Origin: Xanthomonas campestris pv. campestris str. ATCC 33913
Lineage (GTDB): Bacteria; Pseudomonadota; Gammaproteobacteria; Xanthomonadales; Xanthomonadaceae
Direction of reading: 5' to 3'
DNA: 32,000 bases
Assembly: GCF_000007145.1 (NCBI RefSeq)
Contig: NC_003902.1
Coordinates: 2,426,497-2,458,496, forward strand
Shown: positions 9,099 through 9,584 of the stretch, piece by piece
How positions within the stretch are numbered: the first letter of the stretch is position 1
Layout of the letters: every line of letters begins with the position of its first letter
Program-made: the position numbers and the translations under genes
The notes under the pieces: model-generated
What the model saw: only the letters and a program-made list of their open reading frames with translations
Databases searched by the model: none
What the model was told of the DNA's origin: nothing

Positions 9099-9584
9099 CT
9101 AATGCTGCGAGTTCCGTTTTGCGAGGGGAGTGGTTTGGCAGGCAAGACTTGATCCAAAGGCAGACCAAACGAATTCGCGATCGTGCCGACCGATACGCCA
9201 TTTCGCATAATGTATAGAAGGTGCCGTTAGGGCGAGCGGTGAAAGGGCCGTCAGCAGCCCCTCATGCGCCCCTGTGTGCACCGCGAGCACCACCAGCGCG
9301 ACCACCGCGGCGGCCGCGCTTAGCCTGTCCAACACTGATCGCCATAGCGCTCTCTCTGCCGGCGTGCCCGCTCGTTCTGCGTGAATTCTTGCCATCCACG
9401 ATCCGCCGTCGAGCTTTGCCATCGCGCAGAGTTGCGCAATTCGTTCATCTGACAGCGGCTTGTCGCCCATTCGCGCCTTAGAAAGCAGCTGGCGCTGAAT
9501 TCCCATTTTGGTCGCCAAAGCCATATCTGACGGGAGAGAGCAACTCTCCTTCACTTTGTCAAGTAGCTCGTCTACAGCTGCCAT
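9099..9584 (-). CDS. Putative phage immunity repressor 1 (HTH N-terminus, hydrophobic C-terminal segment). The 3' end reads through att site A.
   Basis: The ATG at 9584 has a GAGGA RBS. There is an HTH-like segment (SDMALATKMGIQRQLLSKARMG). The motif ERALWRSVLDRLS followed by a hydrophobic helix matches ERKAWSALWDRLS in ORF 20960-21424. It is divergent from the Rep operon. Codons for SIHYAKW are encoded by site A itself. Confidence 0.6.
   Translation of the reverse strand: MAAVDELLDKVKESCSLPSDMALATKMGIQRQLLSKARMGDKPLSDERIAQLCAMAKLDGGSWMARIHAERAGTPAERALWRSVLDRLSAAAAVVALVVLAVHTGAHEGLLTALSPLALTAPSIHYAKWRIGRHDREFVWSAFGSSLACQTTPLAKRNSQH
9200..9227 (+). other. XerCD-type hybrid att site A: ATTTCGCATAA-TGTATA-GAAGGTGCCGT (dif XerC arm + centre + phage arm)
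   Basis: I read this directly from the sequence. The left 17 nt are identical to the central dif-like site B on the opposite strand. It contains the reverse complement of TATACATTATGCGAA, which I recall as the attP/dif core of Xanthomonas filamentous phages. Confidence 0.75.

Follow-up and report, generated by a model that had tools for sequence, protein, structure and literature searches.

The 32,000-nucleotide window analyzed here, the whole stretch of Xanthomonas campestris pv. campestris ATCC 33913 DNA under study, lies at the replication terminus of the 5,076,188-bp genome. It holds two filamentous prophages, phiLf (prophage 1) and a Cf2-like element (prophage 2), placed head-to-head at the X. 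campestris dif site. The two bodies are the arms of an inverted repeat (5202 bp each; 23 differences between them) that encloses a unique 821-bp center, and three dif-like sites (A, B, and C) bound the two elements (Table 1). Insertion at dif with dif-like junctions, together with the rep, single-stranded-DNA-binding, coat, and zot genes on the ORF map, places them among the Xer-exploiting Xanthomonas inoviruses (phiLf/Cf1c/Cf2 group). The map shows no integrase, and an integrase gene is likewise absent from the gene tables of the related loci L169 and L181 and of the phage records; dependence on XerC/XerD has been stated for phage XacF1 (PMC4076744).

Each prophage encodes a DUF3693 regulator, designated R1 in phiLf and R2 in prophage 2. 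Both match Pfam PF12472 (E values of 6e-16 and 3e-14, with 58 and 53 bits, respectively; cut-off, 21), and the PHROG matches of the DUF3693 regulators are 638 (R1) and 4441. R1 is 98% identical to phiLf over residues 1-132, whereas R2 shows 54% identity to Cf2 ORF10. A structure model predicted a confident HTH domain (residues 1-70), a long helix with a hydrophobic end, a linker, and a tail helix, with pLDDT below 50 at residues 105-128 and of about 62-67 in the tail helix. Residues 1-70 resemble XRE/Cro folds, all fold matches having E > 0.001, and a sequence search of the PDB returned no match under 0.1. We infer the label "repressor" from this fold and from the link of a homologue to immunity. 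The hydrophobic stretch that precedes the att site has an A-x-A-K end resembling a signal-peptidase site in many relatives (among them P0081, P0082, P0116, and L009), which suggests that the regulator may cross the membrane and be cleaved.

Table 1. Features of the two-prophage locus (window coordinates)
Feature	Position	Strand	Remarks
R1, DUF3693/XRE-type HTH regulator of phiLf, integrated form, 161 aa	9584-9099	-	
R2, DUF3693 regulator of prophage 2, integrated form, 154 aa	20960..21424	+	
Prophage 1 body	9661..14862	+	Left arm of 5202-bp inverted repeat
Prophage 2 body	15684..20885	-	Right arm of inverted repeat
Central 821 bp	14863..15683	.	Holds site B, both episomal tails, both PSB15 genes
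Site A	9200..9227	+	Intact XerC-side arm, 6-bp core 9211-9216, degenerate phage arm
Site B	15253..15280	-	phiLf arm and prophage 2 arm
Site C	21323..21350	+	Degenerate phage arm, core 21334-21339, intact XerD-side arm
R1 integrated-only tail, 32 codons and stop	9099..9197	-	Out-of-frame read-through
R2 integrated-only tail, 25 codons	21347..21424	+	Partly antisense to traX 3' end
True episomal tail of R1, class T, 26 codons	15283..15363	+	phiLf U38235, MN263053; L169
True episomal tail of R2, class V, 28 codons	15170..15256	-	L179, L180, L181, L183
PSB15/DUF3653 variant 2, 112 aa	15354..15692	+	Belongs to phiLf
PSB15/DUF3653 variant 1, 108 aa	14854..15180	-	Belongs to prophage 2
Class W episomal-type tail left as a relic by an older prophage (..TELAA followed by read-through)	9079..9199	-	

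Attachment sites and the flipped center

The R1 ORF passes through site A, which corresponds to its codons ~120-129, and the R2 ORF passes through site C, as the initial annotation had reported; integration therefore alters both C-termini. The arm names at site A follow the usage for this phage family. Site B is the sole complete dif in the genome, ~430 bp from the GC-skew maximum, and the 15-mer att core has two exact occurrences versus 0.20 expected by chance. Sites A (plus strand) and B (minus strand) share 19 bp, against 6 bp in the orientation joined by the initial annotation, and B (minus strand) and C (plus strand) share 14 bp, against 7 bp. In the assembly, both pairs stand in inverted orientation, since the central 821 bp lies reversed with respect to the direct-repeat state. 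The direct repeats required for Xer excision appear once 14863-15683 is turned around, and they exist as such in L181 and L183. Among complete genomes, L181 carries the identical 821 bp in the opposite orientation, and L182 carries it crosswise, in the same orientation as the window. The only full dif sits between 5.2-kb inverted prophage arms, in a center that occurs in both orientations.

One orientation of 14863-15683 would block Xer excision of both prophages; Xer recombination between A and B as assembled would invert the intervening DNA rather than excise it. Either arm-arm recombination or the assembler's choice would produce the orientation seen here, the 5.2-kb arms being too long for short reads to span. 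No A-to-B circle joint was detected in two DNA and two RNA runs, three of which are contigs, which drop rare forms, and one of which comes from another strain.

Episomal and integrated tails of the regulators

The two tail sequences that the initial annotation had called episomal are both present at site B, and its integrated tails match those encoded at A and C; the episomal tails had, however, been swapped between the regulators. Joining of the matched cores yields R1 with TVLTLL.. (155 aa, versus 161 aa integrated) and R2 with VRRLL.. (157 aa, versus 154 aa). The natural phiLf records U38235 and MN263053 carry exactly R1 followed by TVLTLL..GQCS, and so differ from the replicative-form junction first predicted. 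Single-prophage strains agree with the corrected pairing: L169 has an identical R1 with the TVLTLL (class T) tail, and L179 and L180 have an identical or near-identical R2 with the RLLAW (class V) tail. Across 167 sites, classes T and W occurred solely with a TATACA-type core, and classes V and S solely with a TGTATA-type one. When rebuilt, the annotated junctions owed their open frame solely to the use of frame 2 by both phages and to the near-palindromic nature of the site. Two synthesized prophage religations, phiLf-UK (L004) and phiLf2 (L006, MH218848), were rejected as natural evidence of the replicative form; ORF10 of phiLf2 is a regulator-PSB15 fusion created at the religation junction.

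The episomal tail of R1 is hydrophobic and then basic, and its stop, at 15361-15363 rather than 15360-15362, overlaps PSB15 variant 2. That of R2, of the same class as the Cf2 tail, overlaps the start of PSB15 variant 1. The 39 codons originally assigned to the integrated R1 tail hold if counted from the att core, but only 32 differ from the episomal form. These codons do not lie in plain host DNA, as had been supposed, but in the out-of-frame relic tail of an older prophage, whose frame-0 translation matches class W tails (e.g., L072 and P0049). This relic occupies window positions 8368-9199, with a class W tail lacking a stop, no intact PSB15, and a 146-155-aa ORF whose C-terminus is related to orf102. 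In L007 (fSU1), L179, and L180, the place of the relic left of dif is taken by DNA encoding an XVIPCD-type effector and by an LprI-like gene; the fSU1 entry, although deposited as a circular phage genome, contains both att sites and their flanks.

Regulators of other strains read the DNA left of A in other frames, three frames in all. Right of C, R2 continues antisense into traX (21373-22023, minus strand), where a head in frame 1 would meet a stop four codons on. In many X. campestris strains, traX, a phage gene in Cf1c and Xf109, is a fixed flank 22 bp right of C. To judge from these sequences, the integrated tails here appear to be accidents of the flank frame, devoid of a function of their own.

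We then compared about 165 loci from Xanthomonas and Stenotrophomonas phages. The att core was found in 187 of 202 regulator matches, near codon 124 and in all three frames. With tail frames assigned by motif, blind to the head, the head and tail of the same prophage, separated by 6-9 kb, were in frame in 71 of 73 cases, or 61 of 63 after repeated tails were dropped, whereas 20,000 within-class shuffles gave a mean of 31 and a maximum of 45. Tails of neighbors at integrated junctions were in frame in 17 of 64 cases, which is not above chance, and some of these 17 probably represent circles or duplicates. Behind the arm, the spacer measures 6, 7, or 8 (14) nt and shifts by one base with the head frame. 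The relatives are not independent, since linker, att, and tail move as a module; the 12 and 7 frame changes on the head trees are therefore largely due to recombination, and distinct shifts may be as few as ~7.

Episomal tails extend 26-39 aa from the core and are conserved in four classes, whereas the tails as found range from 4 to 168 aa and are fused to PSB15 in 13 of 115 cases. Class T had no stop in 40 of 40 tails, with N/S of 0.46-0.7 in the tail frame versus 1.1-10.8 in the other two frames, a modest signal of purifying selection that appears to act in its own frame only. The best 13-residue hydropathy of this class is 2.1; a hydrophobic run followed by basic residues suggests a membrane helix. 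The hexamer TTGACG is invariant in all 40 class T tails (phiLf copy from ~15288), while adjacent leucine codons vary, possibly reflecting a DNA-level constraint or site in the region of 15289-15294. Class W tails end in EIAA or ELAA with synonymously varying codons, and the host ssrA tag ends in AIAA. Such endings occur in only 20 of 6926 long ORFs; the class is partly defined by its ending, and six proteins found without that pattern end alike. Neither phage of the window has an ssrA-like end (R1, GQCS; R2, ADAK), and RNA folds of the tails were not significant (z of -0.9 and -1.9). The initial annotation was thus correct in that different C-termini are encoded in the two states, but its junctions did not hold, and only the episomal tail shows selection. 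These comparisons point to integration as the loss of a selected tail, not an exchange between two designed isoforms, and a sensor role for the tail change seems plausible.

The survey also revealed that tandem junctions in L043, L063, L066, L132, and L133 fuse the HTH regulator to PSB15, yielding an XRE plus DUF3653 protein, a domain pair reported for Vibrio XafT. Stenotrophomonas-type inovirus loci filed under Nocardiopsis yanglingensis (L032) and Ligaoa zhengdingensis (L034) are probably contamination.

The regulator-PSB15 operon and models of its interruption

PSB15 variant 1 is the protein characterized under that name, required for assembly but not for integration (bioRxiv 2024.03.19.585677). 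In five phage records, the stop of the regulator tail and the start of the DUF3653 gene overlap, and integration therefore also takes PSB15 off the transcript of the regulator. In RNA reads from X21, regulator-strand depth ran at 180-380 across site A but at 2-8 along the tails and PSB15 genes, placing PSB15 RNA ~50-fold below regulator RNA in this lysogen; X21 is another, related strain, covered by raw reads of an oligo-dT library whose strand was inferred from the coat genes. The lysogen thus makes a read-through message and little PSB15 message. A weak scan found no promoter-like site in the center, and a terminator-like hairpin at 9008-8990 does not match the fragment-end pile at 9010. The orf102 copies (14479-14787 and 15759-16067) are strongly transcribed, at depths of 100-260 in X21 and about 2000 in X18, with next to no signal from PSB15 just upstream; orf102 therefore has its own promoter.

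We somewhat favor a model in which integration simultaneously removes an off-tag from the regulator and cuts the operon. In these Xer-integrating inoviruses, attP lies ~124 codons into a regulator-PSB15 operon. The circle would produce the regulator with its conserved 26-39-residue tail, the stop of which overlaps the PSB15 start. Integration by host XerCD would cut there, so that the HTH head made by the prophage acquires whatever end read-through supplies, itself predicted to be functionless, and would leave tail and PSB15 6 kb away from the promoter of the regulator. The tail may serve as a membrane tether or protease signal that keeps the regulator off; the tail-less form would then hold lysogeny and immunity, as in mycobacteriophage BPs, and loss of PSB15 expression would damp virion assembly. 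The model builds directly on the observed sequence layout, the head-tail pairing, the selection on the episomal fusion, and the read-through RNA of a related lysogen. Several facts stand against this model: the tail is exchangeable in phiLf-UK, neither tail of the two phages has an ssrA-like end, the N/S signal is modest, the invariant TTGACG hints at a constraint on the DNA itself, the RNA comes from another strain, four runs gave no circle junction, and the relatives are not independent.

More tentatively, with belief short of even, we extend this model to an integrase-free, integration-dependent immunity of Xanthomonadaceae inoviruses. A single Xer cut would drop an interchangeable off-tag, presumably ssrA-like in class W and a membrane helix in class T, and silence PSB15, and the frame of a tandem neighbor would decide whether a tagged, untagged, or PSB15-fused regulator is made.

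The uncoupling of PSB15 from the regulator transcript could itself be the real point of the layout. The tail would then be a translated spacer bringing ribosomes to the PSB15 start, and the two regulator forms would act alike. The stop/start overlap in all records, the role of PSB15 in assembly but not in integration, its ~50-fold lower RNA in the lysogen, the viable crosswise tail of phiLf-UK, and the empty promoter scan of the center agree with this explanation. Coupling, however, needs neither a conserved class T helix nor a class W ssrA-like end with synonymous variation, and we consider it rather unlikely that the operon cut alone matters.

A lower probability goes to an active full-length episomal form, such as a membrane-anchored regulator or integration helper, that integration weakens or redirects, as Yamada proposed in 2013 for phiRSS0 (PMC3816273). 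Selection does act on the episomal form, and deletion of XacF1 ORF12 delays integration, an event that starts from the episome. Strong transcription of the integrated head in the lysogen, the stabilization of the prophage by ORF12, and class W ssrA-like ends, which point to removal of the episomal form, nevertheless render this proposal improbable.

The exchange of two functional tails envisaged in the initial annotation, with a designed integrated tail and R1 joined to VRRLL and R2 to TVLTLL, is very improbable. Past att, both ORFs remain open for 25-32 codons, with lengths near the episomal ones, and many X. campestris strains share the integrated forms. This recurrence reflects the shared flank, however, and the pairing is contradicted by the phiLf records and single lysogens, by the strict association of tail classes with core types at the 167 sites, and by a flank that different strains read in three frames, with a stop after four codons at C. 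Mere compaction of a 6-kb genome, with no regulatory effect, is the least credible explanation, given that Xanthomonas and Stenotrophomonas phages retain the att position in both site polarities and in three frames and that phiRSS0 and BPs show the same layout.

The comparison of relatives indicates which half of the hypothesis to pursue: selection appears to act on the episomal tail and not on its integrated counterpart, and a single event also detaches PSB15. Confirmation would account for the way in which filamentous phages of crop pathogens, lacking an integrase, sense their integration state, with a bearing on their use in biocontrol.

Comparison with known systems

The location of attP within a regulator gene is already known, published for XacF1 ORF12 and phiRSS0 ORF13 and annotated within a gene in the GenBank records of phiLf-UK, Cf2, phiXv2, and Xf109; the purpose of the layout has stayed a hypothesis since 2013-2017. 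XacF1 ORF12, an R1 homologue, contains attP and is split upon integration, and deletion of its 5' region made integration later and less stable (PMC4076744, PMC5666396). It and Cf1c cp8 (18.2K) are 65-66% identical to R1 over residues 1-110 and share with it the att core inside the ORF and the tail class, whereas the core frame differs. Their region is that of the cf primary immunity determinant. The XacF1 and Cf1c papers left the tail, read-through, and PSB15 aside. The resolvase phage of PMC5608472 was discarded as irrelevant.

With its center flipped back, prophage 1 corresponds to phiLf over its length (6066 bp; 99.0% identity). phiLf-UK (MH206184; source coordinates in AE008922 equal to window 9202-15278), whose record places a XerC/D site inside ORF10, was synthesized and religated across the inverted sites. 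This reference phage used to define PSB15 is thus chimeric, combining the body and R1 of phiLf with the tail and PSB15 of prophage 2. It is infectious and lysogenizes with R1 on the other phage's tail; the exact tail is therefore exchangeable. Cf2 (MK512531) resembles prophage 2 in its R2-type regulator, the att polarity inside ORF10, and a class V tail, but uses another frame, and the body of prophage 2 is phiLf-like (99.6% to prophage 1).

In Ralstonia phiRSS0, the 3' part of ORF13, which encodes an HTH regulator, contains a dif-type attP, and different roles have been proposed for the two forms of this protein (PMC3816273). Integration is reported to truncate it cleanly from 156 to 130 aa, whereas read-through yields 161 and 154 aa here. 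In BPs, the proven case of the principle, attP likewise lies in the repressor ORF and a C-terminal segment of the viral form is lost on integration (PMC4557955). BPs encodes a tagged tyrosine integrase and shows a defined truncation and a degron that has been proven, whereas host XerCD and arbitrary read-through operate here: no phage-encoded integrase with a degradation tag was found, the prophage form is not a defined truncation (tails of 4-168 aa in relatives), and an ssrA-like tag on the viral form, lacking in both phages of the window, occurs in class W relatives and in the relic left of A. Compared with these systems, what appears to be new here is the in-frame pairing of own head and tail despite three core frames and the selection that seems to act on the episomal fusion.
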